A DNA stretch of 58,906 nucleotides from Stramenopiles sp. TOSAG23-6 (taxonomy: Eukaryota). Position numbers and translations under genes: made by a program. Under the pieces are notes generated by a model. That model worked only from the letters and a program-made list of their open reading frames with translations, was not told where the DNA came from and searched no databases. Shown here piece by piece: positions 1-58,906 of this stretch. The DNA is taken from contig LT635917.1 in the NCBI GenBank assembly GCA_900128565.1, positions 1 to 58,906 of the forward strand. Reading direction: 5' to 3'. Position 1 is the stretch's first letter. The number at the start of each line of letters is the position of its first letter.

Positions 1-896
1 GGCTCAAAGAAAGGCATTAAAAAAGGCTGCAGATAAAGCAGCAGAGACAGATAATACAGTACGGGAGCTTCGCAAAGACGATACAATGAAACGCCTTACA
101 AAGTTAGTTGGTGGTATCACTGATCCGGAATTTTCTCAAGCATTAGAAGATACACTTTCCACTCTAGGAAAACCTGGAGGTTACAATGGAAATCCAGATG
201 ACGTATTTGGTGGACCAGGAATAGATCCAAGTGTGTCTGAACCTACAGTGGACGCCAATATAGCAAAAACATTACAAATGTTATCTGAAGCTGGTAAATC
301 TGGAATTGATGGAATGGAACCAGCAGCAGCTGAAGCTTTAGGTGAAGACATGATGAAGAATATTATGCAAGATTTTGAACGCATGGGAGAAAAAGAAGAT
401 TTTCAAAATGTTGTAGACGGAATGATGAAACAATTGTTGGCCAAGGAAATTATGTATGAACCAATTAAAGCCATCTGTGAGAAATACCCTGAATGGTTAG
501 CTGAAAATGAACCTTTTCTTGAGCGTGTTGAGTATGAGCGTACGTTTTCATCACGATTTTTTTTTTTCATAGAAAATTTTGTACCTAACAAAAAAATTCA
601 AAAAAAAAATATTTTTTCGCAATACATGGTTTGGACGTCAATATCAATTTATTCAAAGAATTTGCGCTTGTTACGAAACTCAGCCAGATAATTTTGAGCG
701 ACTTATGGAACTAATGCAGGATATGCAGGAATGTGGACAACCCCCGGCAGAAATTGTCAAAGAATTAGCTCCAGGATTACAGTTTGGGTCCGACGGTATG
801 CCAATAATGCCTAATATGGGTCCTGGGATGCCGTCTTTCCCTCCGATGGATATGCCGAATGTCCCTGGTATGAATCCACAGTGTACCATTTGCTAG
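1..896 (+). CDS. PEX19: Peroxin-19 (5'-partial); exons <1-539, 628-896
   Basis: Frame open from base 2. Pex19 C-terminal motifs LLAKEIMYEPIKAICEKYPEWL and LMQDMQECGQPPAEIV, ending in a CaaX box (CTIC). Removing 540-627 joins the two ORFs as YER-FGRQYQ. Confidence 0.92.
540..627 (+). other. Family intron, GT-AT, 88 nt
   Basis: GTACGTTTTC...AATTTTGTACCTAAC...AATATTTTTTCGCAATACAT; restores the PEX19 frame (C|GG = Arg). Confidence 0.88.
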
Positions 897-4363: not shown

Positions 4364-5863
4364 TTAAAAAGTATTTGGAAATATTTCGTCTGAAATCGAG
4401 TCTCCTAATATGGAATCAACTCCTTTCAATTCTTTCCAGCCTCCATACTTTGCTATATAGAGTACTGCAAGTTGATTAGGAAGAGCTCTAAATACAATTG
4501 CAACATCCATTGGTGTAGACTTAAAATCCATATCCATGATTGGCAAATGAAGTATCTGTGTAGTGTCACGGGCTGTGAAGAATATTAAAAAAAAAAAAAT
4601 GTTACATACAAAATTTGGTACAAAAAAAGTTACATTTGAAATGAGTGATGAAAACGTACATTTCCCTGAAGATCAAACGGGGGCGAGGAAGAACCTAAAC
4701 TAGCCCAACTTGTGATAAAGGCACATTTCGTCTTTCCAAAAAACCCAGGGTATTTGGATGTAATTCCAGAGTATGAACCATCTTGCCGAGGAGAAAGCCA
4801 AGAGCGAACGTCTTCTGGTGTTTTGAATCCTCCTTTATCTGCCAAAATCACTCCTTCATAGTTCCCCCCGTATGTTTTGTGAAAAAAATATTTCAAACAT
4901 TTGAAATCGTTAGGTACGAAATTGCGTACGAAAAAAAAATTATAAATTTGAAATGGAAGAGGACAACATACATGTTGCATCTTGCAATTCTTCCCATCTA
5001 CTACGATAATTTATAGTCATCATTGAAATATCAGCATCACACGAATTAAGAAAATGTGATGTAATAATATCATTTGATGAAACATAAGGCACTACATTGT
5101 TCTCAAGAACTCTACTTTTTGCAATGTCAATTTGCTTTTTATCTACATAAAATGCTAGTGGACGCCCCTTTGGCTTACTAAATACACCTTGAACCATAGA
5201 CTTGATAAATGCAAGGCTATTACCATACTTAAAATCGGATTCTCCCATTAACCTTTTTTCCTGCGTTTTCTCATAATCAAATTTACGTTTAGGTATAATT
5301 TTTGGAATTGGAGATAATTCACCAGAGTCGTTAACAATGTCTGCCAATGAGTTCAAGACTTCGTAGTATGTAAAACCGTCAGCAACTACGTGGCTCATTG
5401 AAAAGATCATGGCAAAACTAGTTTCATCTATTGGAGCCAATAAGCATTTAGTGACAGGCGTTTGATGTTGGAGAATAACTTTCCCCTTCCCTACAGCTAA
5501 TTTTCTGCTCAAATCGACGAGACGAGAATATTCCGTTTTCATACTTAGATCTTGTACTGGAGTTTCTTTGATAGTGAGAATTTTCTCAACGTGAAATCGT
5601 TCAATCACAGAAGGATAGACAAGTTGAACACTTTCGCCTTTAAATTTACATAAAGTTCCACAAATCCAAGGATTTTTTTCAGCAACGAGATACAACCGAT
5701 TTTCAATGTGAGTTATGACGTTGTTAATATTTCCTCTAAAAAATGTTATAGTGCAAATTGGTGGATGTTTAAATTGTCCTGTTGCGCCTGAACTAAGTTC
5801 TCTCTTAAATAGCGGCTCTGCACAGTCATAAGGACAATTTTCAATAGAAATACCGTTTCCCAT
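4364..5863 (-). CDS. CoA-dependent (HxxxD) acyltransferase-like protein; exons 5863-4972, 4871-4660, 4567(or 4555)-4364
   Basis: SHVVADG HxxxD motif; three ORF fragments joined in frame by two family introns. Confidence 0.65.
4568..4659 (-). other. Family intron, GT-GT (92 nt) or GT-AG to 4556 (104 nt)
   Basis: GTACGTTTTCATC...AAATTTTGTATGTAAC...AATATTCTTCACAGCCCGT. The first AG is out of frame; both the positional end (4568) and a later AG (4556) are in frame. Confidence 0.7.
4872..4971 (-). other. Family intron, GT-AT, 100 nt
   Basis: GTATGTTGTC...TTTCGTACCTAAC...CACAAAACAT; joins DAT-YGGNYEG in frame. Confidence 0.82.
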
Positions 5864-8675: not shown

Positions 8676-8717
8676 TCTAGCATTTTATAAATAATATATT
8701 AAACAATTAATAGAATT

Positions 8718-8820
8718 GTATGTTTTTTTTTCCAATTTTTGTCTAATTTTTTTTTTCATACGAAATTTCGTACCTAACAAAAACATTTAGAAAATTCAAT
8801 TTTTTTTTTTTGAAAAACAA
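8718..8820 (+). repeat. Non-coding copy of the intron family (probable 3'UTR intron; 3' end uncertain)
   Basis: GTATGTTTTT at 8718 and CATACGAAATTTCGTACCTAAC at about 8757-8778, starting 43 nt after the stop codon. Confidence 0.7.
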
Positions 8821-8896
8821 AATCTTGGTTTTCATAAATTTGAAAGTATAAATTGTTGACACCTAGTAGAAGTTACTACATATAATCATATCATAG

Positions 8897-10526
8897 TTAT
8901 AGTGTTTGCTTCTCGGAATGTTGTTTCTGTTGCTCTTGAATTATCTTTTGTTGTTGTTGTTGTCTAATCATCAAATACTGTGAAAAAGTATGTCAAATTT
9001 GTTAGGTGTTAAGTACAGAATTTGATACAAAAAACATTTTTAAAAAAATTAATGATGAAAATGTACATGTTTCTCATCCGATACTTCAAAACGTTTTCAA
9101 ACAGTACAATTGATTTATGAAGTCTATCGCGCGAAATTTGATCTAAATTAGGAATATTTAGTTTTTTTATTAAATCTTGACGCAACATCTCGAGTTTCTC
9201 ATTACTCATATTAGCAGTGGCATTTAAAGTAGCTTGAGACAAATGTTTAGGATTACTGATTCGAGGATCGGGAAGTCTTTTACTTGCCATCTTCATTTGT
9301 TCTTTTTGATACTCTAAATGTCGCACAATATTCTGTGCATTCTGCAAGCGAGCTTCAGCAGCACGCACAGCAGAATTACACATTGCCATGTGTGCTTGAA
9401 GTTCTTGCTGGCGTTTCTTCCTGTGTAAATATGTATTGTGAAAAAAAATATTTTTAGAATGTTTTTTATTTTTTTTGTTAGGTACGAAATTAGGTACGAA
9501 ATTTTCATCGTAAAAAAAATACATTTGAAATGAATGATAAAAACGTACATACCACAGGGTCAAAGCAATTCTCTAAATTTGCTTTTCTATTATATAGCTG
9601 TTTCTGAACACGAGAAATTCGTTTAGTTTTCTTATTCACATCGTTGCTCTTCGGAATCACATTTTCTTGATTACTCAATCCCGTAGGATTGACACTGCTA
9701 TTATCTCTATGTAAGAATAATCGTAGACTTTCTCTATATTGAATTTTACTTGGAGCTGTAAGTGCAGGTATTTTGGAAAATATTTCAAAAAAAAATTGTT
9801 AGGTACAAATTTTCGTACGAAAAAAAATGGAATTTGAAAAAAACTAAAACATACAGTAAACTCCGAAGCTCCGCGAGAAAATCGGATAAGATTTCGATCC
9901 CGTTCTAAAAGACATGTCAAACGTTTTGCAGGGGGTATGTCAGTATCAGGAACTGTTCCATTGACTTTATCCCATGATCTAGAGAATCTAAACGCTTCGT
10001 CAGTATATCCAATTTCCCTAGGTCGTTTTTCTAATCGTCTACTTCCAGATGCACCTGCCTTTTTACCATCAACTTCAGTGGATTTACCCTTACTCTTACC
10101 GCGACTTTTACCTTTACTTTTGGTCTGGCGCTTTGTCTTTCCTCCTGTTTTTAATCCAGCTCCACCCTGCACACTTCCCCCTCTATCAAGTGATTGACTC
10201 ACTTGAGCTAATTGCTGCGCGCGAGCTAAAGCAGCTTTATCTAATTGTTCTCTTGCCCATTGCATTAATCTAGCCCCATATTCATACATTGTCCTTAACA
10301 TCGGATTAGTTCCATGTAAGCACGCTGCGTTGAAATCATTGTGAAAATCGTTCAACGTTCTGTATCCGCCGTGCTGATTAAGTCTCTGTCTCATTGTGGT
10401 GAGATTCGGGGCTCTTGAGCGTGTCTGTTGATGGACCCCCTTAATATGAAGATCCCACCGACTAAGACGATCAAGACATAGTTTTAATACAATATGAAGA
10501 GTACTGTAGTCGCTTTCAGTTGACAT
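8897..10526 (-). CDS. Uncharacterised protein with a degenerate bromodomain-like N-terminus; exons 10526-9855, 9765-9549, 9430-9067, 8972-8897
   Basis: PNLTTMRQRLNQHGGYRTLNDFHNDF resembles the bromodomain PMDL..I..Y....F..D segment. Continuous frame after removing three family introns; the last exon is less certain. Confidence 0.6.
8973..9066 (-). other. Family intron, GT-TT (94 nt) or GT-AG to 8978
   Basis: GTACATTTTCATC...CTGTACTTAACACCTAAC...TTTTTCACAGTATTT. The positional end gives a Gln-rich 25-codon tail; the AG gives an almost immediate stop. Confidence 0.65.
9431..9548 (-). other. Family intron, GT-AT, 118 nt, with duplicated branch motif
   Basis: GTACGTTTTT...AATTTCGTACCTAATTTCGTACCTAAC...CACAATACAT. 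The downstream CAG would create TGA. Confidence 0.82.
9766..9854 (-). other. Family intron, GT-CT, 89 nt
   Basis: GTATGTTTTA...AATTTGTACCTAAC...AATATTTTCCAAAATACCT. This end opens a 217-nt exon in phase with the next intron; the downstream CAG leads to a stop at 9675. Confidence 0.8.
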
Positions 10527-10786
10527 GCTAGGTTGGTAACACTTAGTAACACTTCCTGTTCAAACACGCAAAAATAATCTATCGAAAAAGCTTTTCTTTT
10601 TTCTTCGAAATTCAGCTTTTTTGACCACATCACATAGTGACGTCATCCCAAGTTTATTTTGGCCAAGTGCTACGTATAGTCTATATCACATATGACACTA
10701 CCTGGCTATAAGATAAACAATCTAATTTTGTGAGCAAATTGTTATACTTTAGTGTATTCTTTTTTTTTGGCAAATTGTATTGGATC

Positions 10787-12675
10787 ATGTATATACCCAA
10801 AGTAGCAAATATTAAAAAGCTTGTTGAAAACCCAGCATGTGTAGTCCAAGATATGATTGACGGATTAATTGAACTCAACCCCAATACCCGCCGTTTAGAT
10901 GGTTTCCCTGAAATCAAAGTTGTTGTTCGTGCTGACTGGTGTATTAAAAACAACAAAGTTGCAATAATATCAGGTGGTGGTAGTGGACATGAACCCGCGC
11001 ACATTGGCTTTGTTGGTCAAGGAATGTTAACTGCTGCTGTAGCTGGTGAAATATTCGCAAGTCCCTCAGCGGATGCAGTATTGGCTGCTATTCGTGCTGT
11101 CACTGGCAAGGCTGGAGTTTTACTCATTGTGAAAAACTACACCGGGGACCGCTTAAACTTTGGTCTTGCGGCTGAAATGGCAAAGGCAGAAGGATACAAT
11201 GTTGATATAGTGGTGGTACGTGACGATGCAGCGCTAGAAGGAGATAAACAACGGGGTATTGCAGGGACAGTATTAGTTCATAAAATTGCTGGGGCTTGTG
11301 CTGAAGAAGGCAAATCACTCGCAAGAGTGCGCGAAGTAGCCGCAGAAGCTGCATCACGGGTATATTCAATGGGCGTTGCTCTCAGCACATGCACGAAACC
11401 GGGACAAAATATAAAAACACAGGAGGATAGATTAGCGAATGGAGAGATGGAGCTTGGTATGGGTATGTATGTTTTATTATTTTCAATTTCGATTTTTTTT
11501 CGTACGAAATTTTGTACCTAACAAAAATATTGAATGTAAAATATTTTTCAAAATACATACACGGAGAGCGAGGACGAGGTCGTTCGAATATGCTCCCAGT
11601 GAGTCGTATTTGTACAGTTCTATTAGATACAATATTAGAAAAAATGGAAAACACGACATTTGGGTCAGTTGTTTTAATAAATAATCTAGGAGGTGCAACC
11701 GCGATGGAAATTGCAGTTGTTGCTAAATTTCTTATGGCAGATTTACGAAGCAGAGAATTTCGAGTTTCTCATTTAATTTCTGGTCGATTGATGTCTGCAC
11801 TTGACATGCAAGGTGTTTCTGTCAGTATTCTTCCTCTATCTCGTGAAACTGCGTCATTCATTGAAAGTTACACAGATGCTCCTGGTTGGCCACGAGTTGC
11901 TAAGTTAGCGTCTTCACAGCGTTGTCCTCAAGAAAATTCAATTTCAATTCCAGAGTTCACTACTACAGAAAATATGTATGAAATCCAAAATATGGAAACT
12001 ATAGCACCTCATATTGAATTATTACAAAAAACAATTCGTGCTGTCGCTGAGTCTGTTATATCAAAAGAAGCTATGTTGACACATTGGGATGGTATTGTAG
12101 GCGATGGTGACTGTGGTACTACTTTAAAATTTGGATTTGAATCAGTACTCAATGATTTACCTAGCTATCCTTTGTTATATCCTAAAGGTGCATCTTTAGT
12201 TATGAGAGCTCTTAGTAGATCTCTTAGAGGTATGGGTGGCTCTTCCGGGGCTCTATATGCTATTGGTCTCTCTGCTGCAGAACGTTCGATGTCAAGTGAC
12301 GAAAATCTAGACGAAACAAATATGCAAATGCAAAACTTTTGCTACTGGGTCAGAGCACTTCGCTCAGCGATTCATGCTATAATGTCTCATGGTGGAGCTA
12401 AACTCGGTGATCGCACAATGTTGGATGCTTTATTGCCAGCCATAGATGTTTTGGAGTTGGCAATTGAAAGCAATAATACTTCAGACTGGAAGAAAGCTGT
12501 TAGTGCTTCGGCATCTGCGGCTGAAATTGGAGCGCATTCCACCAAATCAATTCATATTGCTGGTGCTGGAAGGTCCGCATACATTGAACAATCTCATTTA
12601 GGAGGAATTCCTGATCCTGGTGCTATGGCTATTTCCTACATAATGAAAGCAATATCAGACTCTCTTATTTTATAG
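10787..12675 (+). CDS. DAK1: Dihydroxyacetone kinase / triokinase (DAK1+DAK2 domains); exons 10787-11466, 11559-12675
   Basis: SGGGSGHEPAH, VKNYTGDRLNF, ELGMGIHGE (across the junction), GDGDCG, GDRTMLDAL, GRSAY, PDPGA. Confidence 0.95.
11467..11558 (+). other. Family intron, GT-AT, 92 nt
   Basis: GGT AT|GTATGTTTT...TTTTGTACCTAAC...AAAATACAT|A CAC GGA GAG restores GIHGE. Confidence 0.93.
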
Positions 12676-12971
12676 TTAAAAAAATCATTTTTATTCATAT
12701 TGAGTTTTAGAGGTTGTTTATATTTTGTAATAGTTTGAAATTTTATTGTTTTTGTTTCGAAGGAAGTAGAAATGTTTTTAGTAGGTAAATATAAACACAT
12801 AAAAAAAAATTGGAGAGGAGAGGGGGGTTTTCTCTTTTTTCGGAGATTATTCAGTTACATCTTACTACAGTAGATAGTCAAAAGATATCCTATCAATTGC
12901 AGCTTTGTTAAGTAAAAAAGAACATCGAAGAACAAAGGAATGAACTAACTACTCACTAGGCGAGACCAATA

Positions 12972-15900: not shown

Positions 15901-17565
15901 GGCTTAGTGCAGCGAATGAGAGAATGCTAAGAAAACGCGTTGCCAAACGTTGGAAAAATCAACATATGACGAAAATGAGGGAAATGTGGAAATCTAATAC
16001 AGAAAGCATTAAAAAAAAACAGTTGGAAGACGCTCGAAAACGCAAAGAAGCTGAACGACAAAGACGTATTGAAGTAGCAAATCGTGAGCACAATGAATGT
16101 TTACAAATGAGAATAGAAGAACATGCACAGTGTAATTGTGGTGATTTGTTCTGGGGCATCGAATTACTAAAGGAAATGATTAGAGATGAATTTGCTGCAG
16201 CACAATCTCATAGAAATAGAATTAATCAAAGAGTCAAAGAAAAACAACACGTTAAATGGCATCACGAATTGCGTCGCAGAAAGAAAGACAAGGCAGAGAA
16301 ATTGGCTGCTGTGTACGCATCGCGACATCGTAATTATATGAATAGATTCTGGAAATCTAAGAACTCGGCGGATATCATTGCTCATAATTGGACTCGCCAA
16401 AAATCAGATGAGAAGATAATAAAAAAACTAGTTTCTGGACCAGTAGGTTTCATTATTCCCATAGATGAACCTTCCCCATTAGATGCGATTCTACCTGATC
16501 TTAAAGGTCGCCCAATGACTGTAATTCCACAACGTGCACGTCGATTACAATCAGTTCACAATGAAAATGTTGATGTCTACTTACCCCCCTTACTTGCAAT
16601 TACACGTTCTTCTCCTAACCCGGCGGACCTGCCTCCAGACACGGTTAGAAGTATCGAAAAAGATGTGTATAGCCCTAGAGTGCGGAGTAGACGAGGTTAT
16701 ACCACGTACAGTAGAAACCCTAAATGGAGGGACGGATTTCGAAGCAGAGCTGAAACATCACGAAAGTCCAAAGATGTTAAGAGTAGGATGTTACACAAGA
16801 GAGCAGCAACATCACGTGCTAAACTCAACACAACCGCGACATTAAAGTCTCCACCGGCATCGCCCACAGCAATACCACAAAATATAGATCTTTCCGTAGA
16901 CATTCCAAAAGAGCTTAAAGCTTTTGTTGAACAAGTAAATATAGTTGTCAATGAAAAAGGAACTCTTTTTGCTGCGGAGATGAATTCTTTACGCCATGCA
17001 TTATCAGATGCTGATGAAGATCAAACACAAACTACAACAGAAGCACAAATTATTAATCAATTGCGAAAGCAAGGATTAGGTATACCACGTAAGTTTGTCA
17101 CTGCAATGTTTGTATCATTAGCAAAGCTAACACATAAAAGTTCAGTAGAAGAAACGCGCATTCAGTATAATAGCCTAATAGACTGTATGAGTAAATTTGT
17201 GGTGCCGATTTCACCAAAACAAAAGAGAAACCTATTTTTGAAAGGTTTCTCAAAAATGCAGTTCGCAGTTAAAAAGGGAGTACATGTACATTTTCAAAAT
17301 TGAATTTCGAATTTCTTTTTTTGTACCAAATTTTGTACCTAACAAAAAACAATTGAAATATGTTTTGACAATACATGTCCCACCAAATGATAAATTGAAT
17401 AAACGTATTTTCAAAATGAAGTATGCGCTTGCAATCAAAGCAGGTATGAAAATAGATCATTCTGATAGCGCTAGTGGTGATGGGGTAAGTAGTATAGAAT
17501 CTGATAGTGGATCATTTTTTAATACAGTGGATGACTTACAAGCTAAAAAAAATAAAATTAAATAA
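12972..17565 (+). CDS. Large WW / IQ / coiled-coil / two cNMP-binding-domain protein; exons 12972-17285, 17377-17565
   Basis: WW-like GWTE..YYIH..T and GWIQ..YFIH..SWDRP; IQ-like IQCMFRMH and CQARFRG; cNMP-like FFFIMKGEG..GNYFGE and FYIIESG..SQFFGQRA. Confidence 0.75.
17286..17376 (+). other. Family intron, GT-AT, 91 nt
   Basis: CAT|GTACATTTTC...TTTTGTACCTAAC...GACAATACAT|GTC; no AG near the 3' end; joins two ORFs in frame. Confidence 0.8.
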
Positions 17566-17779: not shown

Positions 17780-19852
17780 ATGAGTGCTAACACTAATACC
17801 GCGTCGGCTGAAGCAAAATGTATTTCTTTGCCATGTTGGCCTCTCGGTGTACCACATGTTGAGAGCAGAAAGCAGCAGCCGACTCGTATAGACTTGCCTG
17901 ACACACGTAATAAAAATATACGAGCTTCTTCTTTAGATATACAGCACGATATTCCAAGACTACCTAATGCAGAGGAAGAATTTCTCCTTGAACAGGGCAT
18001 CTCACTCCCCGAAGTTGATGAAATAAGCTCTGATGTAGACAATCAAACCTGTTCATGTTGGCCACCTGGTCAACGAGTTGAATCACAAGCTGTTTCTCCA
18101 AATCCAGCGAATATTCATCAAACAAAAGACGTTGTATATAAAGGCATTCCATTGAAAGAGAAAGAATCTTACACAGATTCAGATGGTGTCGCGAAAGTTC
18201 AAGAAGAATTGTGGTTAATATTTACTTTTTATGCTATCCATGGGAAACCGCAAAAGCCCCATATGATGACAGAAAATGAATGGATTCGATTTCTTGTTGA
18301 CTGTTGGTTACTTCCCATAAGTTCGGTGAATAAAAAGTCGCTGCGTAAACGACGCTCTGTAAAATCTCAAAACTTAATGAAGGGAAAAGGATATCCCAAA
18401 TTATTGAGTCCACAGGTGGCTTGTTTATTGTATAAACGTGCTGTAAATTATCGATCCGACGGTATGTACGTTTTCATCATGAATTTTAATTTTATTTTTT
18501 TCGTACGAAATTTTGTACCTAACGATTTTTTATTTTATTTTTTTTCACAATACATGTATTTTCAAAACTTTTTGAATGCTTTGATATTCATTGGTTCGAA
18601 ACTTTATAGTAAAGAATCCAGTGACAATGGTCTTGGAAAATTAACTGCAAATGGTGCATTTTCATTAATCCTCCAGCGGCATGTTTTACCGAAATGCCTC
18701 GCACGGCGTAGAATTATTCCAGTCGTTCATGTACATTTTAATTTTAATTTCGAATTTATTTTTTTTTTCGTACCCAAATTTGTACCTAACAAAACATTTG
18801 CATATAAAATATTTTTCACAATACATCATATTCTTGCATCACACGATGTGACACAACTTTATCGATACTACAAAAATCCCCTCCTAGAAATATTTAATTT
18901 GTATACAGTGGATAAGGGAGAGTTTTTTTCTCGTATTGATGAGAGATACAAAGAAAAAAGTACAAAAAATGGTATAAAATTTAAATTGGGTGTCGGCGTG
19001 AGGACTATGGGTAACGAGAAATGGTGGAAATTTTGTAATGACTTTGGCTTATCTAAATTACTATCCCACTGTAAACTGAATGAGATTTATCTTAATGTGG
19101 GCTCCATTGTTCAAGTAAAAGACAAAATTGTACAGGAAATGTTTTTTGAAGGATTTTGGGAAGCTTTCATTAGAATATCTCAGTTGGTATATGATGACCC
19201 ATCTGCTTCATTTGGTGTTTCTTTTATACGCCAAATTCGTGCAGTATTTCTCATGATGTGGAGATCTATTGAAGAAGGTGCAAGAAATACCAGGAGAGAG
19301 TATAATTCTATACGTTGTGGAAGAAATTGTTCGGACGAAGTGAAACCTTTAGCTGCTAAAATATTTGGAGATGCATTCTTGAATGATTGGCGATCAACTA
19401 ATTTTCATGATTATGGCGAATACAAACGCCTTGGAGTTTACTCTTCGGATTGTGTTCTTTCAAGAATGACTGAAGATAATGCTCGTGTATCACTCAATAC
19501 TTCTAATATGATAAAAGAACAATTACTAATTTCTGGGCGAAATAAAACAAAGCAGATCATCGAAGACACAAAGTTTCAAAATGATTTACAAATAGGATCA
19601 GACGTTGAGCTAGCACGTTTTGTAGAGGATAGAAAAAATAGTGTTTCCGAAATAGCCAACTTTTCAAAAATAATCCCGAATGATAAATTATCGAATCACA
19701 ATGTAGATAAAAGAGGTAGAACAAAACTTGTAAATCATTCATCAAAGCAGCGACAGCTTGAATCTGTACGACTTGTAGGTAGATTACCCGGTAGAAATTT
19801 TACACCTCTAACTGAAACGGATAAAAAGGGACGATGGTCTATTTTGACATAA
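17780..19852 (+). CDS. Uncharacterised protein with degenerate EF-hand-like helices; exons 17780-18465, 18556-18730, 18827-19852
   Basis: Long ORF with repeated L..IF..Y / M...EW..F..D segments; two stop-free family introns inside. First ATG at 17780. Confidence 0.6.
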   Translation: MSANTNTASAEAKCISLPCWPLGVPHVESRKQQPTRIDLPDTRNKNIRASSLDIQHDIPRLPNAEEEFLLEQGISLPEVDEISSDVDNQTCSCWPPGQRVESQAVSPNPANIHQTKDVVYKGIPLKEKESYTDSDGVAKVQEELWLIFTFYAIHGKPQKPHMMTENEWIRFLVDCWLLPISSVNKKSLRKRRSVKSQNLMKGKGYPKLLSPQVACLLYKRAVNYRSDGMYVFIMNFNFIFFVRNFVPNDFLFYFFSQYMYFQNFLNALIFIGSKLYSKESSDNGLGKLTANGAFSLILQRHVLPKCLARRRIIPVVHVHFNFNFEFIFFFVPKFVPNKTFAYKIFFTIHHILASHDVTQLYRYYKNPLLEIFNLYTVDKGEFFSRIDERYKEKSTKNGIKFKLGVGVRTMGNEKWWKFCNDFGLSKLLSHCKLNEIYLNVGSIVQVKDKIVQEMFFEGFWEAFIRISQLVYDDPSASFGVSFIRQIRAVFLMMWRSIEEGARNTRREYNSIRCGRNCSDEVKPLAAKIFGDAFLNDWRSTNFHDYGEYKRLGVYSSDCVLSRMTEDNARVSLNTSNMIKEQLLISGRNKTKQIIEDTKFQNDLQIGSDVELARFVEDRKNSVSEIANFSKIIPNDKLSNHNVDKRGRTKLVNHSSKQRQLESVRLVGRLPGRNFTPLTETDKKGRWSILT
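18466..18555 (+). other. Family intron, GT-AT, 90 nt, in-frame and stop-free
   Basis: AT|GTACGTTTTCATC...TTCGTACGAAATTTTGTACCTAAC...CACAATACAT|G. Confidence 0.8.
18731..18826 (+). other. Family intron, GT-AT, 96 nt, in-frame and stop-free
   Basis: CAT|GTACATTTTA...AAATTTGTACCTAAC...AATATTTTTCACAATACAT|CAT. Confidence 0.8.
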
Positions 19853-19873
19853 TAAACTTTATTTACATATTAA

Positions 19874-22800
19874 TTAGTCTTGTTCACGTTCATTGCAATA
19901 TACACTAGATGACCGAACATAGATATTATGTCTCAACTTCCGTTGAGTTTGTCTGGTCGAATTATTCGCTATTTGGTTTACTTTTATTCGTTCTTTTACA
20001 TTTTGCATGAGTATACTATCCGATGATATATTTAAAGATTTTGTGTTGGTATCTGAACCACCAGACTCTTTTGAGGGGAAATAATGAACATTACCGAGTA
20101 CACTCTTTTCAATATTTTGTTGGTTATATTCTTTGGATACATTAATCTTTTTTTCTATATCTTCTTCCTTATGCTGGGCTTTTGATAATTTATTTGAGAT
20201 AATGTGATGTCGATGATGATCAATACGCTCTATATTACGTACATTACTCTTATTGTCATCACAATTATTTTCTTGTATTATGAAATCTAATCTTCTTTTA
20301 GCTTCTAAGGTTTCTTCATATTGTTGTTTTTGTATATTTAAAGATGTGGAGCAATATGGAAAGTCTCTTTTGCTGTGATACTCGTGCTTTAGCCTCTCTT
20401 TCAATACATCGACTAAAGTATTGGTTTGCTTTTCCAAGGACCTATTGGCTTCACAAGGAGAATAACATTCATCTTTTAATGCATGTATAAATTTAATTGG
20501 GAGTAGCGATGTTTTCATATTTCTATACATTTTTGCATCGATAATTTCTTTTTCGGGATCGTTTTTGTAATGATCATTAGGCTTCATCAATAAATATTCT
20601 AACATTGGATTATGATTTCTATTATCTTCTGCTTCAGCTTCAAATCGTTGAATATTAACCCATTCTGTTCGCCTATCTTTTAACTTTGATTTGTCTATTT
20701 CTTGTTGTTTATATAATGTTATATGTTTAGATGTTGTTTCTGCATGTAAACTTTCAAGCCACGCTACTGTATCGAGAGTGGTTGCATAGTCTAATACAGT
20801 GTAACCACGTGTAGTACAAAATTTGGTCGTTAGTATTTGAGACTGTGTTTGGTTTATAGCTATATTGTTTTGCAGTGAAGAGTACAAAAGTTGTGATACA
20901 TCCAGTCCCACTTGTACGCTTAAGTGGAGGGGTGTTTCCCGATTTCGATTTAAATTATCAGCATTCGCACCTGCTGTTAGAAATAATTGTATACTTTCAT
21001 ATGAATTATTCTCAGCTGCGATGTGTAAACATGAGTTCCCTTCAAGAATAAGTTCGCGAATATTAATGAGCTCGCTTATTGGCGTCCTAACAAATCCCAT
21101 ACCGTCAGGTGATTTTCGTTCGGGTGTATTTTCCATCAATTTTTTGAGTTGACATAAATTGTCCTTGTAACACGCACTAAAGAAGTCATCTGACCAAGAT
21201 CGCAAACGGGGACCAATAATCTTTGTTTTCCAGAATATCTGAATTGTTACTGCTGCTTTTCTCTTATCCTCAACATAATTTCTCATCCAAATTAATCGAA
21301 TAACTCGCTGAAATTTTACTATTGATAACTTCTTCTTTAATATGTTCATACGAAAATAATGTGTTCGGAAACAATTTATAATACGATTTGCAGCGTTTCT
21401 TCTTCTTACTGTAAATGTTTTCAATTGTAAAGATTTCTTCTTAAATGACCTCACAAGAAAGACAGCTGCATATAGTTTTTCCCGAGGCTATATGTAGAAA
21501 AAATATATCAACTTTCAAAATGTTAGTTTGTAAATTTAGAAAAATATTGAGAAAATAATGAAGATATATGAATGGGGAATATATTGTACCTTACTGCAGC
21601 TAAATGCTAATATGGAGCTACCGACTTTGTCTCCCATGAGCTTTTGATCCAAGAATTTTTTCTCCTTTTCTAATGTCCAAAGTCTATCCAAATATCCTCG
21701 TATATGTTTTTGTACTCTTGAGACATAAAATTCCGGCAATACTTTTTCAAAATTTCTTCGAGATAGATATCCTAGAATATGTGCACTAACTCTTGTTTTG
21801 AGTCGTTGATTATGAAGCGAAGTACGTATTTTCCCAGTAAACTTTGCCAAACAAAGTTTTCTATTCACACTGTCTACCACAGATGTCTCTAATAAGCCTA
21901 ACCCATTCAGCATGCGCACTCGTGTTAATTTTTTCAGTATACTATGAAAATTGTAGTATGTATTATAATTGTTCCATTTCTTTTGAATTAGCTTTGTGCT
22001 ATCTACTATAGCTTCCCGATGAAAGATGCGCCTCGTAACTTTTATCCAATGTCGTTTAGCGTTTTGAACCCTCCATATTTTGCGAATAAGTGATACTGAC
22101 TTCATCAAATGTCTTGAACGCAAAACTAGACGCCATTTTGATCCAATACAAAAACCAGCCCAGCTGGCTAATCGCAATGTTCGTCTGAGTAACAAGTATC
22201 GCACGAAAGGAGCTATTAAATCAACTACTTTAGTTTGGTGCCATGTCTGTAAGCGCTGCAAGGTATCAGTCTTTCCAAAAAACATTGTCATACCAAGAGC
22301 CCAAGAACAGTGTTTTACTTTTTTCCCTCTAGAATCAATCAACTGTGGTTTAGGTAAAGCTTCCTCTGCGAGTATTCTACAAGCTTCTTTAGGATCAGTT
22401 TCGGCATTTACATTATTCAAAAATTTAAAGTATCCCAGTTTTGCAGCCCGATTAATACAAAATGTCTGGTATTTTTCTCTGAATGGAAATCCTTCTCGCT
22501 TGATAGTGCACACATCCATAATACCTGAAAATAATAGTTGCCGGTACACTTTGAAGTAGTTATATGATGCAACACCATCTATTGGCCGAAAGTGTATGTC
22601 ATTAGGTTTGATACATCGGAGATACCAAGGATTTGTGTGATGCAATGTATATGCAAGGTTCTTTAACTGTGACATGTATTGACTTGTCATTGTCTTGTGT
22701 TGATTCTTATGTCGTTTCTTATTGTACAAATCTGAAATATACGAGATACTGCTATTCCGGAGTAAATCTAGAAGTTGCGGAGGTACTTTGTCCTTATTTT

Positions 22801-27865: not shown

Positions 27866-30800
27866 TCAAATTAAGGTAGTTAAATGTGCAGTTTGCAAAG
27901 CAGACTTTATCCAATCTACGTCGACTTTTGTATTTTGGTTTACAGATATTCGATACGCATTTTCTCTATTTGTCTCCCATAAGGATTTCAGATTATGTTT
28001 TATCCAATTTGTGTACTCTTCCGTATCTGGGAGTATCTGCTTGCCGTCCTTTCGTAGTGGAAGTTTAAATTCAGAGAAATTTATATCTTCGTTTTCCCAA
28101 ATTTTGTGTTTCCTACCTTGTGCTTGACTAATTCTTGAATATTGTCTTGCAAGTGATTTCTCAAAGCCAAATGGAAGCAAATGCAGAACTAGAACGTCAT
28201 TTCTAGGAGGAAGAAATAAAGCATTGATAAGGCCGCCACCATGTAAAGCAATTAATACATCAGTGATATGCATCGCACGGACCTGCTCAAGAAATGTTAG
28301 TTTTTCCATTTGTAGACGTTGTACGCGAAATCCTTCTTCAATTGCCACTTTTTCAACTTCATCCCAATTTAAAACACGATGATTTTCTCGCTCTATAATT
28401 GTGAAAACAGGGGTTGAATTAAGTTTGATTTTCTGTTGTTGACTCCAATAACTTTGTAATTTTTTTCTGGTGTCTTTGCTATTTGAAATATAATCATTTT
28501 GTTTTTGTTTTGCAGACTTTTTTTTGTTCATGTTTTGTAAAATACCAAGGTTACTGTAGAAAAATTGAAGAAACTGATTGCTCCAATACTCTCGAGAGTG
28601 ATTATTTGCATCACTTGATACTTGTTGTTTATCTGTATTACTTGTTATGTTTCTATTCTCAAGAGTATGCATTTTTTCACCTTCTGTGCTACTTTTATCA
28701 TGACATGTGTCATTTGAAGTATCGGAATTACAGTCTATAGAGCTGTCATGAGGTATTATTATTTCATTAGAGAGCATACTTAACCGATCATTCAATCCGA
28801 CAATAGCATGTCTAAAACACATTGGCCATATTGATTCCGTTGAGGTAGCTTCTTGTAATTCAGCCCACGTGATAATTCGATGACGAGATATCATTTGAAA
28901 AAGGGAATAATATTGACCAAGTTGTTTTACTAAAGTGTCACCTCCATTTCGCATGTCATTGGAAATTAGAACCAACTGAATATCACGATCTGCAGCAAGA
29001 TATTCAGGTGCATGTTCCATCACAGTTGCCCAGAGAGCCATAAAACTATCATGAAACGTAGACCAATGTTGTGGGAAATTTGTCATGGAAAAGAAGAAAG
29101 TTGGCGCCATTACTATTTGCTTACACCGAAGTCTTGCTTCTTCCCATCTTTGGCCAACTGTACGTAAAGCAAGGCCACGAGGCTCGTTATTGTAATGCAT
29201 ACCCCTGAAGGAAGGTATCGAAAACAATCCATGAAATCGACGTGGTCGAATAGTGCGATCCCTAGTATCTCTCGGGTCATGAAGGATTTCTTGGCCATGA
29301 AATACCTTTGAAGCGCCTAAGCTTACGTTTCCTTCCATCGATGGAGTTAGTGGCATGGCTGATGGATCAGGCCCAAATTGTTTATCAAAGAATATAAATT
29401 CCCCATGTTTAATAGCGATTCTTTCGAAAGAGCATGACATTGTGATATTGCTGTCTGAACAACGCACAGATGACATTGACGGTGGTGCGCTGGAAATTGT
29501 ACTATTGTTCGTTTGGAATTTATCCCCAGTCCGGATTGAAGGTAACCTCTGAACATCTCCACTAGCACGTAAATAATGTTTACGTTTATTAAATACATGA
29601 TGGGAAAAGGGATTATCAATCGGTCGATGTAAATAATCAAATACAGCGAGAGTATCAATAGCTGGTGTATGCATGTTAATCGAAGGTTTTGCAATAATAC
29701 TATGGTGTAACTTTGACTTTCCAAGACCTTCAAATTTAACTAATTGGCTATGGTACAATTCTTTCATATTTGAACTTTTAGTATTTGTACCAATTTCGGA
29801 ATGGGTAAGAGAAAGCCCTGCTCCTCTATGCTTATTTATATTGTGAAAAATATTTAAAAAAAAAAAAACTTAGGATACAAAATTTTGTACGAAAAATAAC
29901 TAAATTTAAAATTCATGATGAAAACGTATTATGGCTATCAATTGAAGCACCTGCAGGAGGTACAAAATTTGGGTATACTAGATAAAGTCCATTTTGTACC
30001 ATAAACCGCAATGCTAATCTCTTCCAGGATGACCATGTATTCCACTTATTCGACGCTGCATGAGGTAATGTTAATTTTAGCATTGATAATATCTCATGCC
30101 CTGCCTGCTCTGATTTATTTATTACATTTTCAGGTCGCCTGAAGATCCACCCTCTATTCTTCTTTGTTGTGTCGACAAGTGATGGTAATGCAACACCTGG
30201 TTCGGATAAACTATTCAGTTCGCTAATCCACTTACGAAACCGAAGCCATTGTCTAGGAAATAATACAGCCCCCCAAGAAGATGGTACTTGAAGTAAAAAC
30301 GGAGTATCACTTGCAGGAAAATCAAATGGGCGCCATAAAATGTCATTCCAATGTGGCCTATATAGAGAAACTCCAAAAATATTTTCATGATTCCCATATG
30401 CCACTACAGAAGCCGTTGCCCATTCTAAGAAGTGGGGTGATACTTCAACATCATCCTCTAATAATATTGCATATTCGTGATATTCATCTTTATTTGTGTT
30501 TCGATTTCTTCCTTCTGCTGTAGGCCACCAAGATTCCAAAGTTGATAATGCAGAGCCTGCATTACTTTCTCTCCAGTTAACTGTAATTTTTCCATGCGAC
30601 CACCGCAAGTCTTTTATTAGCTGCTGTAATCTATTGCGATGCGATGAAGAGTCATAATCAACCGTTATCTTCACATCAACAGGCATACCCATCACATCAG
30701 CTGCTAGAAGAGAATTCCAAAGCCTCTGCAGCGATTCAACTCGACTACATGCGAATATTAATAAAACAAATCGAAATTTGTATTTTTCATTCATAAAACT

Positions 30801-34464: not shown

Positions 34465-37400
34465 TCATTCCCAATCACTTCCCTCACTCTCTCCATCGTC
34501 AGAAAAATCACTTTCTGCAACATCTGAATACTTTCCTTCATCCTCATCATCATCAGAATCACACAAATTTGTGTAACTGATAGGTTTACGATTTCGACCA
34601 CCTCGCCGCGATGATTTCTCAGTATCCATTGATCTTTCATCAATAATATCACCATCGTCATCATCGATGACGTCATCAACATTAAATTCTTCTTCACTAG
34701 AAGATGTATTTTGGAAGAATATTTCAATTTGTTTTTCGTTAGGTACAAAATTTTTATAAAAAAATAAATTCGAAATTGAAAAAAAAATAAAACATACATA
34801 ATATTTCAATAGATTTCTTTTTTGCTACTTTCTTTTTTGATTTCACTTTGACTCTTTTTGCCTTTGGAGTCTTTGCTGTTGGTGATTCAGTTGATACATT
34901 TGGTTTCTGGTACAATTTTACTCGTTCAATCAAATCGGATTTCTTACCTTTTGTTGATATGCCATACTCTGCACAATATGTTTTCAAGACTGCAACTTTC
35001 ATTTTTTTCAATTCACCATTAGTGAATATTTTTTTCTGTTTAAATCCATCGCTTTGCTGAGACTTTGACTGAGGAGTATGAATTGTGAAAAAATACTATG
35101 TAGAAAAAAATCGTTAGGTACGAAATTTCGTATGAAAAAAAATTAGGTAAAAAAATTATCATGAAAACGTACATCCGCCTTATCAGTTTTAAAATTACTG
35201 TGCGATCGCTTTGTTGGCTTCGAAATCATTGGTGAAAATGTGTTTTCAGACACTGCAATTTGAGCCATTCGCCTGTTCTATGAAAAATATTTTTTTTTTT
35301 TACCGAAAATAAAAAAAATTGTTAGATACGAAATTTTCATAGTATAATAAATCAAAATTCAATTTTGGAAAACATACATGGATAATGGAAGATCATTGAA
35401 GTCTGAATCATCGGAGGAGTCATCGGATATATTCACGGTTTTTTTCATGATTTTTTTTGATTTTTCAGGATTTGGAATTGAAAGCGATGAAATATTAGAT
35501 GTTGGAGATTTTTTCGTTATTTTTGGTTCTTTTTTTACTTTTGGTTCAAAAAATTGAGAAATTGGTTTTGTGTTGGCTTTTGCTTTTACATTCTCGTTAC
35601 TTGCTTCTTCTTTTACTTTCTCTTTTTTTACTTTTGGTTTCTTCTTCACGACTCTCTTGCGTCTTTTCTTTTTATTACCATTTTGAGCAGCTTCCTTCGC
35701 TTCTCTTTCTGCATCTGCATCGGCTTGCATAGCATCTTCAAAACGTATAATAGATGCTTCTAAAGCAATGAGATCGGCCTCCCATAATTCCTGAATAGAA
35801 GTTTTTTGAAGTAATCGCATTACAGCAGTTTTTTCATCAAGTTCCTTTTTCAACTTTTGGACTTTTTCGACAGTAAGTGACCGAATATTCATATTCAGCA
35901 TATAATCGTACCCACGCTCACGAGTTTGCTTTTCTTTTTCTTCATCATCTTTCTTCTTTTCCTTCTTTGAAGCTGGTTGAATAAGCACATAACCATTAAT
36001 CTTCATTTCAGCCACGAGTTCGGCCTCTTTCCTCCTGGAAATTACAAGTTTACCTTCAACGACTTCAGTCACAAAACGCATTTGGTTTGCAAGACGTGTG
36101 TGTTCAGCTTTCAAAGTCTTTAATAAATGGCGTTTGCGGTGTCCATACATACGTAAACGTGTTTTATAGAAGCGGTCAATAATACTTGAAATAGTTTTAA
36201 ATTTCGTGACTTTTTCAGACACAGTTTCACTTTCAATCTCTGGCATGGCCAAAGGTGCATTATCAACGATCATAGAATCCATCACAGGAACAATAGCCGG
36301 AGCTTCTTCATTTTCATTAAATTCGGTCGCTGGTGGAAGACCCGGTTGGACTAGAATCATATTCGAATTGGAAAGTTTTGAAGTCATCTTAAAATCACTT
36401 AAAAATGTTGCATTTTTCAATGGTTCTTCTCCGTAATCTACAGTAGGTGCTAGAGTTATAGTGAAACTGACGGTTGCATCTGTATGGTTTTCGTTATAGT
36501 CAACAACGAGTTGCTTTCTAGGCTTACTATCAGTCTTTTTCTTTCCCTTCGATTTCGATTTTGATTTCGATTGATTCTTTTCAGGTTCGGATAAAACTTC
36601 GAGTAATTCTTTGAATTTTTGAGTCCACATTCCGACAGGAAGTTCAGAAATATGAAGGATTCCTCCAGGACCTGGTTCGATCACTTCGACCAAGCCTTTA
36701 CACATAAACCCAAACGCATTCTTTTTCTGAAATACTTCTGTCGTGCCTTGAAAACCACGATACCAGGGAACAAGGTTTTTAGCTACAGTAATAGAATCAC
36801 CTCCTGATAGTAATTGACGAAGACAATTGATAATATCTTTGGGATTGTAATTAGGAATTTCTGTAGACCAACCCGTACCAATACCAGCACATCCATTAAC
36901 AAGCACAAGTGGAATAACTGGACAATAGTATGAAGGTTCAACACTTATACCGTCATCATCAAGGTAATCAAGTATAGCATCATCATCGGGATGAAAAATA
37001 TGTCTTGTAATTTCAGCTAATCGAGTAAAAATATAACGAGGTGACGCTGAATCTTTTCCACCTTGAAGACGTGTACCAAATTGACCACCAGGATATAAAA
37101 GGTTGAGATTATTAGAACCAACATAATTTTGTGCCATACCCACAATTGTACCCATTAACGACGCTTCACCATGATGATACGCAGCATGCTCAGAAACGTA
37201 TCCTGCAAGCTGTGCTACTTTCAGCTCTTTGGTTAATTTACGTTTAAAACAAGCAAAAAGAACTTTTCGCTGAGATGGTTTGAGTCCATCAATGAGGTTC
37301 GGGATGGCTCGTTTTACAGAAGCCTGAGAAAACAAAACAAATTCCTTATTGAAAAAATCTTTGTATGTCATTTCTTTCATGGAAAAATCTACGTACGTCC

Positions 37401-39788
37401 CAGCTTTCACTGCACCAATCCAATCCTTCCTTGCATGTATTTTGGAAAAATATTTCAAAAAAAAACAATTAAATTTGTTAGGTACAAAATTTCGTATGAA
37501 AATGTTTTTTCGAATTAAAAAAAAAATAAAACATACATCAGCATTATCTTTTGAAAAGGCAAGTTTAATCAGTTCAGCATCACCATCAATCCATTTGAAT
37601 GGGATGACATTAGTATCAAGATTAGCAAAATATTGCTTTGCTTCTTTAGAAGTTGAAGTACCAAGACCTTTATAATACTTGATATGCCAACCTTTCTGTT
37701 TTGGTAAAGTTTCATTGCCTTCCTCATCAATTCCAAGAATATTACGAGACTTCCAAGTCTCATACTCAGGAACTGTATGAAACAAAATTTGCTTCTTATT
37801 TCGTGTTACTTTTACAATCGGTGTTATAAATTCTTTGATAAAACCTGGAACTTGCATTAAAGAGGGATTAAACCAGTGTAAGAAATTCAAAAGTAGCCCT
37901 TTAATATGAGATCCATCGTAGTCTTGATCAGCCATAATTAAAATTGAGCCATACCGAAGTTTCTTAATATTTTCTGTGTCATACGAGACATCTCGTCGAA
38001 TTCCCATAATTTTAATAATGTTTTGGATTTCATCATTATTTGATACCTGAGAATGCTTTGCTTCGCGTACATTTAAAGGCTTCCCTATAATAAAAAAAAT
38101 GTGTACAGTTTTGAAATTTGTTAGGTACAAAATTACATACGAAAAAAAAATCAAATTGAAATGATAAAAACATACCTTTTAAAGGAAAAACACCATAAAA
38201 ATCTCTGCCTACAATGGAAAGACCAGAAACGGCAAGTGTTTTTGCAGAATCTCCCTCAGTCAGAATAAGCGTACATATGTAATTTTAGGAAAATATTTCA
38301 AAAATTGATTTTTTTTGTTAGGTACGAAATTTTGTATTAAAAAACATGGAAATGTATGATGATGAAAACGTACTGATAACTCTTTGAAGTACCAGCCTTA
38401 TTTGCATCATCTAATTTCGGAATCCCACGAATTTTTTTCAACTTTGTCGCTTGCTTACCAACGTTACGAGACCGAAAATTAGCAAATTGCATTGCCGCAT
38501 CCACGATTCCCATACTCTTTGACACAACTTTCTTCAATATTGCAGGAGACAAAATTGCAGAAGAACCGAAATCTTTATGCTGAGTAGTCAGAGCTTCTTT
38601 TGTCTGTGAATCAAATGATGGATTTTCGATAAGGCAATTGATAAAAACACAAATGAAGTTTTTTGTTGCTGCTTTACTTAACGCTTTGGCTTTCTTATTT
38701 TTTCGTGCACATTCTTTTTGAATAACAGAAACGAGTTGATTCACAATAAAATCAACATGAGTTCCACCTTTAGTAGTAGCAATACTGTTCACAAATGAAA
38801 CTTGTTCGAAACGTGTTCCATCACTAGGACAAATCGAAATTTCCCAACGATCATTCAAGCGTTCGTGAAGCATTTTCGTAGATCGGCCCTCTGCAGCCAA
38901 CGTCGAGAGACAGGATCGTGAACATAATTTCACATAATCTGGAAAGTTTTTGATGTGAAGTTTCTCGCCATTAAGATACACACGAACAGATTTATCAGTA
39001 ACACCGGCTAAATCATAAGTACGTTTTTTGAAAATATTACATATTTCTTCATTTAATTCAAACATTCCAAATTTTTCAAGGTCTGGTTTGAAAGTTATCT
39101 TTGTATACGATTGAGTTTTATGAGCATCTGTGATTACAGGCGACTCTGTCTTTGTCATATTGTTACGAAAAACTTGAACGTATTTCTTTTTCAATTTTGA
39201 GTCAACTGTTTCAACAATAAACTTTGTGGAGAAAATATTAGCAAGCTTAGCACCAAAGCCATTTCGACCGCCTGTGACTTTTTTCTTATCATCGTTGTAA
39301 TTTGAACCAGTAAGAAGATTTCCAAAAATTAATTGAGGTACATACATTTTCTCTTTCTTATGCATCTGTACAGGTATTCCCTTCCCATTATTGGCGACGG
39401 AAACAGTCCCAGACTCGCGGTTAATGCAAACTTTGATCCACGTCATCCCTTCTGGATCACGCTGTTTATTGTCAGCTGCATTTACGAGAATCTCATCAAA
39501 TATCTTAAAAAGAGCTGGAACATATGTACACGTCTTGCGAACTAGGCGACCTCCTTTATCTGCTAAATCTTCAAAATTATCTGCTGCAGGAACGTCCGCG
39601 TTTTCACTTGATGTTGGGAGAACAGCGGGGACATCCGTAAAAGTCCACGTATCATACGTAGTTGGTTGAACACTACCAACATAAGTATCTGGGCGTAATA
39701 GAACATGCTCTCGCTGATTTACTTTTTTGTAAATATTTTCTACCCTATTTGGAGTCAATGTCTGGCGTCTGTTGAAGTTTTCCGACAT
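34465..39788 (-). CDS. TOP2: DNA topoisomerase II with C-terminal SAP domain; exons 39788-38374, 38276-38176, 38084-37537, 37434-35378, 35272-35173, 35077-34798, 34703-34465
   Basis: EHVLLRPDTYVGS, DEILVNAADN, GGRNGFGAK, TEGDSAK, PLKGKPLNV, DQDYDGSHIKG, YYKGLGTS, DGLKPSQRK, YHHGE, SPRYI. Six family introns restore a continuous frame. Confidence 0.97.
34704..34797 (-). other. Family intron, GT-AT, 94 nt
   Basis: TAT|GTATGTTTT...TTTTGTACCTAAC...CCAAAATACAT|CT opens the acidic TOP2 tail; the nearby TAG gives another frame. Confidence 0.8.
35078..35172 (-). other. Family intron, GT-AT, 95 nt (in-frame CAG 9 nt downstream also possible)
   Basis: GAT|GTACGTTTTC...TTTCGTACCTAAC...CACAATTCAT|ACT. 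Confidence 0.75.
35273..35377 (-). other. Family intron, GT-AG, 105 nt
   Basis: AT|GTATGTTTTC...TTTCGTATCTAAC...AATATTTTTCATAGAACAG|G; the second AG is the in-frame one. Confidence 0.82.
37435..37536 (-). other. Family intron, GT-AT, 102 nt, in-frame and stop-free
   Basis: Removal converts FSKDNAD[34 aa]ARKDW into the conserved FSK..AD.RK.W helix. Confidence 0.9.
38085..38175 (-). other. Family intron, GT-AG, 91 nt
   Basis: AAAG|GTATGTTTTT...TTTTGTACCTAAC...ATTATAG|GG restores PLKGK. Confidence 0.92.
38277..38373 (-). other. Family intron, GT-AT, 97 nt
   Basis: CA|GTACGTTTTC...TTTCGTACCTAAC...AAAATTACAT|A restores SYQCTLILTEGD; contains an in-frame stop. Confidence 0.92.
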
Positions 39789-58843: not shown

Positions 58844-58906
58844 ATGTATTCTGGAAAAATATTTCAAAAAAAATCTAAAAAAAATTGTTAGGTACAAAAT
58901 TTCGTA
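58844..58906 (-). other. Family intron, 3' part only (ends CCAGAATACAT)
   Basis: TACGAAATTTTGTACCTAAC...AAATATTTTTCCAGAATACAT; truncated by the window end. Confidence 0.75.

Follow-up and report, generated by a model that had tools for sequence, protein, structure and literature searches.

Introners, as described in Micromonas, Aureococcus, fungi and aquatic protists, are near-identical short introns that occur in unrelated genes, carry their own splice signals, end in short terminal inverted repeats and lie in sense orientation (PMC9860276, PMC12130899). Here we describe a repeat family that largely shares these features, identified in one 58,906-nt window of Stramenopiles sp. TOSAG23-6 DNA (contig LT635917.1), to which all counts refer. 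The family came to light through a 92-nt insert (11467-11558) in a dihydroxyacetone kinase gene, which is very probably a genuine intron without a 3' AG in an otherwise intact gene, and one copy of an abundant introner-like family. Described introner families have canonical ends, whereas 14 of the 19 resolved coding copies in the window end in AT, and it is these uniform GT-AT ends that would set the family apart. In place of a clear introner target-site duplication, we observed a frequent AT before the element. The curated introner survey took 3' sites as AG or AC and discarded unverified non-canonical families, according to PMC12130899, and the literature that we searched contained no description of a uniform GT-AT introner.

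Other systems resemble this family in part. The dinoflagellate parasite Amoebophrya has introns with terminal inverted repeats, short direct repeats at their boundaries and non-GT-AG ends, on which standard gene predictors fail as they do here (PMC7789003). The Amoebophrya introns, however, have no dominant dinucleotide pair and no clear splice signals, whilst the present family combines uniform GT...AT ends with strong yeast-like boxes and, unlike the Amoebophrya elements, has no family-wide terminal hairpin. In the tunicate Fritillaria borealis, the major spliceosome handles AC and AU 3' ends, which are recognized by duplicated and divergent U2AF subunits (PMC13326754). In that animal the 5' end is non-GT as well and the phenomenon extends to 95 % of introns, whereas introns of the present family retain a 5' GT and AG- and AT-ended introns coexist. 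The rare GT-AT and AT-AC introns of animals and plants, together with the U12 introns of Physarum, involve the same spliceable dinucleotides (PMC1557818; bioRxiv 10.1101/2020.10.12.336362), and both pairs are reported in U12-type and, rarely, U2-type introns. Those introns are single conserved oddities or a minority U12 class with an RTATCYTT motif and a branch site 10-12 nt from the end; in the window GT-AT is the majority class, the boxes are different and 33-47 nt separate the branch-like box from the 3' end. Text searches of three sources on marine stramenopile (MAST) genomes (PMC5778133, PMC8163842, PMC12614181) brought up no mention of non-canonical splicing, although supplementary intron statistics may differ.

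A probable kinase intron without a 3' AG

The window is compact, eukaryotic and AT-rich (~36 % G+C), with short gaps between long open reading frames (ORFs). Exon 1 of the kinase gene ends with ...GAG CTT GGT ATG GGT AT (to 11466), the 92-nt insert opens with GTATGT and closes with ATACAT, and exon 2 starts with A CAC GGA GAG. Sequence and reading frames agreed with the initial annotation that excision of 11467-11558 yields ELGMGIHGE. The join was gap-free in the Pfam Dak1 profile, where the stretch 10787-11464 corresponded to profile positions 2-201 and the frame opening with ATA CAC (11557/11559) to positions 202-312, followed by a full Dak2 domain; Dak1 scored 262.4 and 70.9 bits in its two parts and Dak2 122.2 bits, both exceeding the Pfam thresholds. 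On the C. freundii kinase structure (1un9), exon 1 covered residues 12-218 and exon 2 began at residue 219, placing the histidine at residue 220. As in this ATP-dependent two-domain dihydroxyacetone kinase/triokinase, the protein contains full Dak1 and Dak2 domains and a histidine in GIHGE, and is an ordinary member of its class once the intron is correctly removed.

A homologue alignment of 13 comparison rows bore on the same junction. With the public gene model P0003 left out, each of the 12 remaining homologues, which came from plants, oomycetes, algae, an animal and bacteria, had G[IV]HGE at the join position, so that the alignment check suggested by the initial annotation came out in its favour. 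The motifs GGGSGHEP, NYTGDR, GDGDCG and DRTMLDAL were all present alongside GIHGE. Only the non-AG join retained the histidine of the G-I/V-H-G-E motif, which we take, from the alignment, to be the residue that binds dihydroxyacetone (DHA). The initial annotation had stated that this bond is covalent, and PMC6429413 describes DHA held on a histidine through a hemiaminal link in both groups of such kinases, a histidine that is presumably the one of GIHGE.

Comparison of the kinase with an independent DNA run from 2024 revealed 18 differences distributed over both exons, of which 12 were synonymous and 13 fell at codon position 3. Judging by these substitutions, the kinase is under purifying selection in both exons, read in their joined frames. 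For exon 1, the best matches were 54-61 % identical genes on long contigs from metagenomes, which reach 1 Mb and are probably bacterial; when exon 2 served as protein query, identity did not exceed 39 % beyond the near-identical entries P0003 and P0004. No close relative and no empty-site allele of the kinase were present among the 80 metagenome loci kept (L001-L080).

All open-frame combinations of GT-AG, GC-AG or AT-AC ends were enumerated for donors in 11200-11524 and acceptors below 12000. This yielded 606 open-frame solutions, and no G[TC]-AG solution among them kept GIHGE; there is no AG dinucleotide in 11453-11564. The exhaustive enumeration thus upheld the earlier claim that any GT-AG solution deletes the catalytic histidine, together with its worked example, the 104-nt pair GT 11463/AG 11566, which gives ...ELGM-ERG... 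and loses GIHG. Three AT-AC solutions, which share the acceptor 11556, kept the motif; of these, 11465-11556 alone was seamless. Because the AT at 11465-66 is repeated by the AT at 11557-58, removal of 11465-11556, 11466-11557 or 11467-11558 results in an identical mRNA. The initial annotation was right that the 3' end is not AG, but had overlooked that the boundary is ambiguous by 2 nt and that AT-AC is formally possible. With this refinement, the observation of a non-AG kinase intron is confirmed.

An introner-like family with shared boxes and ends

Look-alike inserts were present in gaps between other ORFs of the window. The box GTACCTAAC, allowing up to one mismatch, occurred 25 times against 6.0 expected, a number reached by 0 of 100 shuffles. 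At a cut-off of E<1e-4, an nhmmer profile built from 17 copies identified 24 family copies in 58.9 kb; the kinase intron itself scored E 8.5e-13, and Pex19, topoisomerase II and other genes also held copies. These comprised 14 coding copies ending in CAT, five coding copies ending in AG, one copy with A at +1, one cut by the window end and three degenerate copies situated in 3' or intergenic DNA (Table 1). Copies were typically about 90-100 nt in length, and all 21 of the 21 within gene bodies lay on the sense strand. The initial annotation had treated the kinase intron singly, and whilst its view that the non-AG end is real is supported, the intron's membership of a repeat family had been missed. 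The kinase histidine, which it had ranked as the strongest single argument, does support the non-AG end, but the family is a stronger one; seamless homology, the 14 of 14 sibling introns in which only this non-AG end restores the frame, and depletion of the element in polyA RNA together support this end.

The family consensus reads GTAYGTTTT(CATCAT)..., then TTTTTTCGTACGAAATTTTGTACCTAAC, then ...AAATATTTTT(C)CA(C/A)AATACAT. In an alignment of 14 copies, the invariant columns were the initial GTA, the branch-like box and the terminal CAT. The ends of the element form short inverted repeats (ATGTA...TACAT), AT precedes it in 11 of 14 copies, and no longer duplication was found. A TA target-site duplication in the style of Tc1/mariner was judged by eye and set aside, as only a minority of the 14 flanks fitted. 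No autonomous partner element was seen in the window, Rfam and tRNA scans of the window returned no match, and the element core had 0 matches in viral contigs. In the DNA metagenome run X3, copy-holding bins had summed depths of 66-7155 compared with ~7.4 elsewhere (about 10-1000x single-copy depth), depths which are no copy number but which suggest thousands of element copies in the community.

Excision from GT to AT joined long upstream and downstream frames in all 14 CAT-ended coding copies, whilst in 10 of them the first AG past the branch box either broke the frame or did not occur within 40 nt. In topoisomerase II, numbered on yeast 4gfh, the junctions of two AT-ended copies were seamless, as was that of an AG-ended copy serving as a control (Table 1). 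The Pex19 gene matched its Pfam profile up to position ~174 before the element and resumed at ~176 after it. The topoisomerase II gene (34704-39839, minus strand) holds six copies in total, four AT-ended and two AG-ended. In the copy at 55041-55136, use of the AG upstream of the CAT would lead to a stop after 34 codons, and use of the CAT to the next exon and a further 536 codons. If skipping of this AG is real, the 3' site must be picked by something other than a 'first AG' rule.

Table 1. Positions of the kinase gene, its intron and boxes, the other family copies and an unrelated intron in the window
Feature	Position	Strand	Remarks
Dihydroxyacetone kinase exon 1	10787..11466	+	Start ATG at 10787; final AT, codon phase 2; from translation
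Kinase intron, 92 nt, GT...AT reading	11467..11558	+	Equivalent: 11465-11556 (AT...AC), 11466-11557
Kinase exon 2 (remaining Dak1, then Dak2)	11559..12675	+	Stop 12673-12675
CAC codon, substrate-binding His	11560..11562	+	Aligns with His220 of 1un9
5' splice-site-like box GTATGTTTT	11467..11475	+	Family consensus GTAYGTTTT; GTA invariant 14/14
Perfect 12-nt palindrome TTTCGTACGAAA in element core	11498..11509	+	Conserved block
Branch-site-like box GTACCTAAC	11514..11522	+	37 nt from 3' end; invariant block
Conserved 3' block AAATATTTTTCAAAATACAT	11539..11558	+	CAT invariant 14/14
Sibling GT...AT, Pex19	540..627	+	No AT before GT (flank GAGC)
Sibling GT...AT	4872..4971	-	Frame, nhmmer
Sibling GT...AT, 118 nt	9431..9548	-	Internal TTTCGTACCTAA block duplication giving two branch-like boxes
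Sibling GT...AT, WW/cNMP-binding gene	17286..17376	+	Frame; polyA RNA contig starts 17372
Sibling GT...AT	18466..18555	+	Frame, nhmmer
Sibling GT...AT	18731..18826	+	Frame, nhmmer
Sibling GT...AT, topoisomerase II tail	34704..34797	-	Frame, nhmmer
Sibling GT...TTCAT	35078..35172	-	Alternative end: in-frame AG 18 nt upstream
Sibling GT...AT, topoisomerase II	37435..37536	-	Seamless, yeast Top2 numbering 648/649
Sibling GT...AT, topoisomerase II	38277..38373	-	No AT before GT (flank ATCA); seamless, 441/split codon 442/443
Sibling GT...AT	44267..44357	+	In-frame AG 6 nt downstream
Sibling GT...CGCAT	55041..55136	+	No AT before GT; TTTTTTAG 8 nt before end
Sibling GT...AT	55269..55360	+	Frame, nhmmer
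Family copy GT...AG, topoisomerase II	38085..38175	-	Seamless, 475/476/477; control
Family copy GT...AACAG	35273..35377	-	Frame
Family copy, ACAT changed to ACCT	9756..9854	-	In-frame AG 12 nt further on
Family copy GT...CACAG, 87 nt, in frame	4573..4659	-	nhmmer, frame
Family copy GT...CACAG	8978..9066	-	Directly before stop codon
Family copy, A for G at +1 (ATACGTTTT), altered 3' end ...AAGCATAGAGGAGCAG	29840..29928	-	nhmmer
Family copy cut by window end	58845..58905	-	Ends ...AATACAT
Unrelated canonical GT-AG intron, myosin/ankyrin gene	21488..21589	-	102 nt, branch box ACTAAC; frames by hand

RNA evidence, splice boundaries and competing explanations

Positions 1-20000 were compared with contigs of the DNA run X3 and of three RNA runs, comprising X8 and X12, which were polyA-selected and came from different studies, and X6, which was non-polyA RNA. 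We normalized RNA depth to X3 and compared 10 element-holding bins with 20 others. Element-holding bins were 159-fold poorer in X8 (0.00082 vs 0.131 in the others) and 103-fold poorer in X12 (0.00006 vs 0.0065), and this ~100-fold polyA contrast is supportive of removal, short of proof. One X8 contig (record 32; 250 nt, depth 6.97) aligned to 17372-17538 from its letter 50, whilst its first 49 letters lie elsewhere. Since TACAT stands at both ends of the sibling intron 17286-17376, an alignment of joined exons would begin exactly at 17372. The depth of record 32 multiplied by these letters (6.97 x 49 = 341.5) matches all of the X8 signal in the upstream bin (340.2), and 167 letters explain the next bin (1.745 calculated, 1.74 observed). 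Judged by position and depth, record 32 is a probable join across this intron. Among the RNA contigs listed, those on the kinase mapped to 10851-11129 (X6), 11888-12150 (X8) and 12046-12196 (X12). An independent X3 DNA contig (10715-11495) extends from exon 1 into the intron, indicating that the insert is no assembly artefact and occurs in wild DNA collected years apart.

The boxes suggest how removal might take place. GTAYGT and TACCTAAC boxes are the signals for U1/U6 and U2 in intron-poor eukaryotes. The kinase intron has the GTRNGT-like 5' site (GTATGT, 11467) and the CTAAC-like branch box of U2-type introns, and departs from that type in its terminal dinucleotides, which are not GT plus AG. 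Spliceosomal-type boxes, together with AG-ended copies that carry the same boxes and join in frame, point to spliceosomal removal under an unusual CAU 3' rule. Each copy would bring its own strong 5' splice site (GTAYGT), branch-like box TACCTAAC and ...AATACAT end; the spliceosome would cleave at the G1 of GT and behind the last T of CAT, generating GU...AU introns, and the resulting kinase mRNA would encode GMG/IHGE with the catalytic histidine kept. We infer the spliceosomal removal itself, the exact GT and AT cut sites and the spliceosome that acts.

Several observations weigh against this account. In the active site of the major spliceosome, an AU 3' end would match G1 poorly during the second step. 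The first AG past the branch box is in frame in 4 of the 14 CAT-ended copies, approximately the chance rate, and offers each of these a nearby in-frame AG alternative. In 55041-55136, a perfect TTTTTTAG (ending at 55128) stands 8 nt before the inferred end and would need to be skipped, and the remote INPP4-like homologues are gap-free at this point but weakly so, with blastp aligning only residues 360-867. The kinase mRNA is the same for GT-AT and AT-AC, and the kinase junction 11466/11559 was not among the 15 of 148 joints listed. Contig depths are a crude measure and RNA libraries may contain DNA, and X6 displayed no depletion of the element (0.160 vs 0.152), which points either to DNA carried over into that library or to plentiful intron RNA, unspliced or excised.

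The boundaries could instead be AT(11465)...AC(11556), whereby a 2-nt AT target duplication would supply the first bases of the intron and the ...TAC of the element its 3' site, and the major spliceosome would remove it using A1-C pairing in place of G1-G. A1/C(-1) compensation is known from yeast, AT-AC provided a seamless solution in the kinase enumeration, and AT stands before the GT in 11 of the 14 CAT-ended copies. AT-AC is also a recognized pair for both spliceosomes, according to PMC1557818. However, the GT follows GC, CA or TC in three coding copies (540-627, 38277-38373 and 55041-55136), although all three, including the one in the essential topoisomerase II, require the same excised length, and the end of two copies would be TC or GC instead of AC. 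GT (14/14) and AT (14/14) form the only pair common to all CAT-ended copies, so that GT-AT is the sole reading to fit all 14. Under AT-AC, moreover, the splice-critical 5' AT (11/14) would be less conserved than an exonic 3' AT (14/14, in all three codon phases), which is the wrong way round and favours GT...AT. On these sequence patterns the boundaries are probably GT...AT, and we consider AT...AC unlikely. The closest protein in a large collection, P0003 (eukprot:GSMAST32.ASY1.ANO1.1916.1, a label that hints at a MAST-3-like stramenopile), is a gene model of identical or near-identical DNA that uses GT 11471/AG 11568 and reads ELGMGMY/RGRGRS, without the catalytic histidine, and so demonstrates that the GT-AG rule yields a damaged model. 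It is also missing 33 residues downstream of GHEPAHIGF, along with several shorter stretches of the Dak2 half, and these extra deletions look like spurious canonical introns inside real exons; P0003, in dropping other conserved blocks too, looks like an ab initio artefact. Were this join or GT(11463)...AG(11566) correct, and both are in frame, the product would be a pseudo-kinase without its histidine. We regard this as extremely improbable, given that IHGE would be deleted or replaced although invariant in the 12 aligned homologues, that the remaining catalytic motifs are intact in a gene apparently under purifying selection in both exons, and that GT-AG logic fails at 10 of 14 siblings and would remove conserved topoisomerase II residues. 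Searches for spliced protein in the large collection returned only the gene model and a DNA-derived fragment for the kinase exon 2 query, and no match for the 62-aa exon after intron 17286-17376 or for the INPP4-like exon.

With GT...AT as the preferred boundaries, removal could still fall to a minor spliceosome in a transformed, U12-type-like form, comparable to the expanded system of Physarum, which would tolerate GT-AT and need no AG. GT-AT is documented in U12-type introns (PMC1557818) and common among the non-canonical U12 introns of Physarum (bioRxiv 10.1101/2020.10.12.336362), the 5' box is conserved to +9 (GTAYGTTTT vs GTATCYTTT), ACCTAAC resembles CCTTAAC, and the apparent skipping of an upstream AG in 55041-55136 would fit. 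The U12 consensus, however, is RTATCCTT at the 5' site and TCCTTRAC ~10-15 nt from the 3' end (bioRxiv 10.1101/2020.10.12.336362), whereas the 5' site here is GTATGTTT (or ATGTATGT) with GT instead of CC/CT at +5/+6, and the branch-like box, at 33-47 nt, stands well outside that distance. Five copies end in AG although their 5' and branch boxes are the same, and conservation to +9 may simply mean recent copying. A U12-like system thus appears decidedly unlikely. More doubtful again is the suggestion that the elements are not spliced, but are gene-inactivating miniature inverted-repeat transposable elements (MITEs), DNA excised in the manner of internal eliminated sequences (IESs) or inserts removed under structural guidance as in euglenids. 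The inverted-repeat ends would suit such a view, an 8-bp terminal stem is possible in the kinase copy (GUAUGUAU with AUACAUAC), and a distinct splicing mechanism has been proposed for the Amoebophrya introner elements with their inverted and direct repeats (PMC7789003). Simple inactivation is excluded by the 14 of 14 in-frame excisions, the six topoisomerase II copies and the purifying selection; the element is retained in the independent DNA contig, and GTAYGT and TACCTAAC, both conserved, belong to the classic signals of the spliceosome. Hairpin-guided removal was rejected, as the kinase fold had a z of -1.55, with 11 of 200 shuffles folding as well, and no consensus end-to-end helix emerged across the 14 copies (-1.12 kcal/mol); the kinase intron thus lacks the stable structure joining intron ends that marks the euglenid type. 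We consider removal by any of these non-spliceosomal routes very unlikely.

Implications and further copies

We tentatively propose, with rather less confidence than we place in the intron and its boundaries, that the major spliceosome of this lineage may have gained a second specific 3' rule (CAU), usable despite a good upstream AG and exploited by an intron family thousands strong. If this were true, most introns of the genome would be GU...AU and published proteomes of the lineage would be systematically wrong at these positions. The lineage would then offer a natural, genome-wide and uniform AU 3' site beside AG sites, with textbook 5' and branch signals, and thereby a clean test bed for 3' site choice, as well as a further case of a mobile element reshaping splicing rules. 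GT-AG-based gene models of uncultured marine grazers lose catalytic residues, as illustrated by the kinase histidine, and the low gene counts of such grazers may partly stem from these models. Introner surveys based on annotated canonical introns would overlook a family of this kind.

The unrelated GT-AG intron at 21488-21589 indicates that the organism uses AG as well. In the family copy at 29840-29928, in-frame AG ends were found only at lengths of 106, 109 and 112. The gene at 54158-56973 (plus strand), host to the copy with the apparently skipped AG, encodes a remote relative of inositol polyphosphate 4-phosphatases; its protein has CVDGIDIS where homologues have CKSAKDRT, and may therefore be catalytically inactive. 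The three degenerate copies (8718-8786, 26558-26624 and 34409-34463, all plus strand) lie 3' of stop codons, in sense to the upstream gene, and may represent introns of 3' untranslated regions or decaying insertions.

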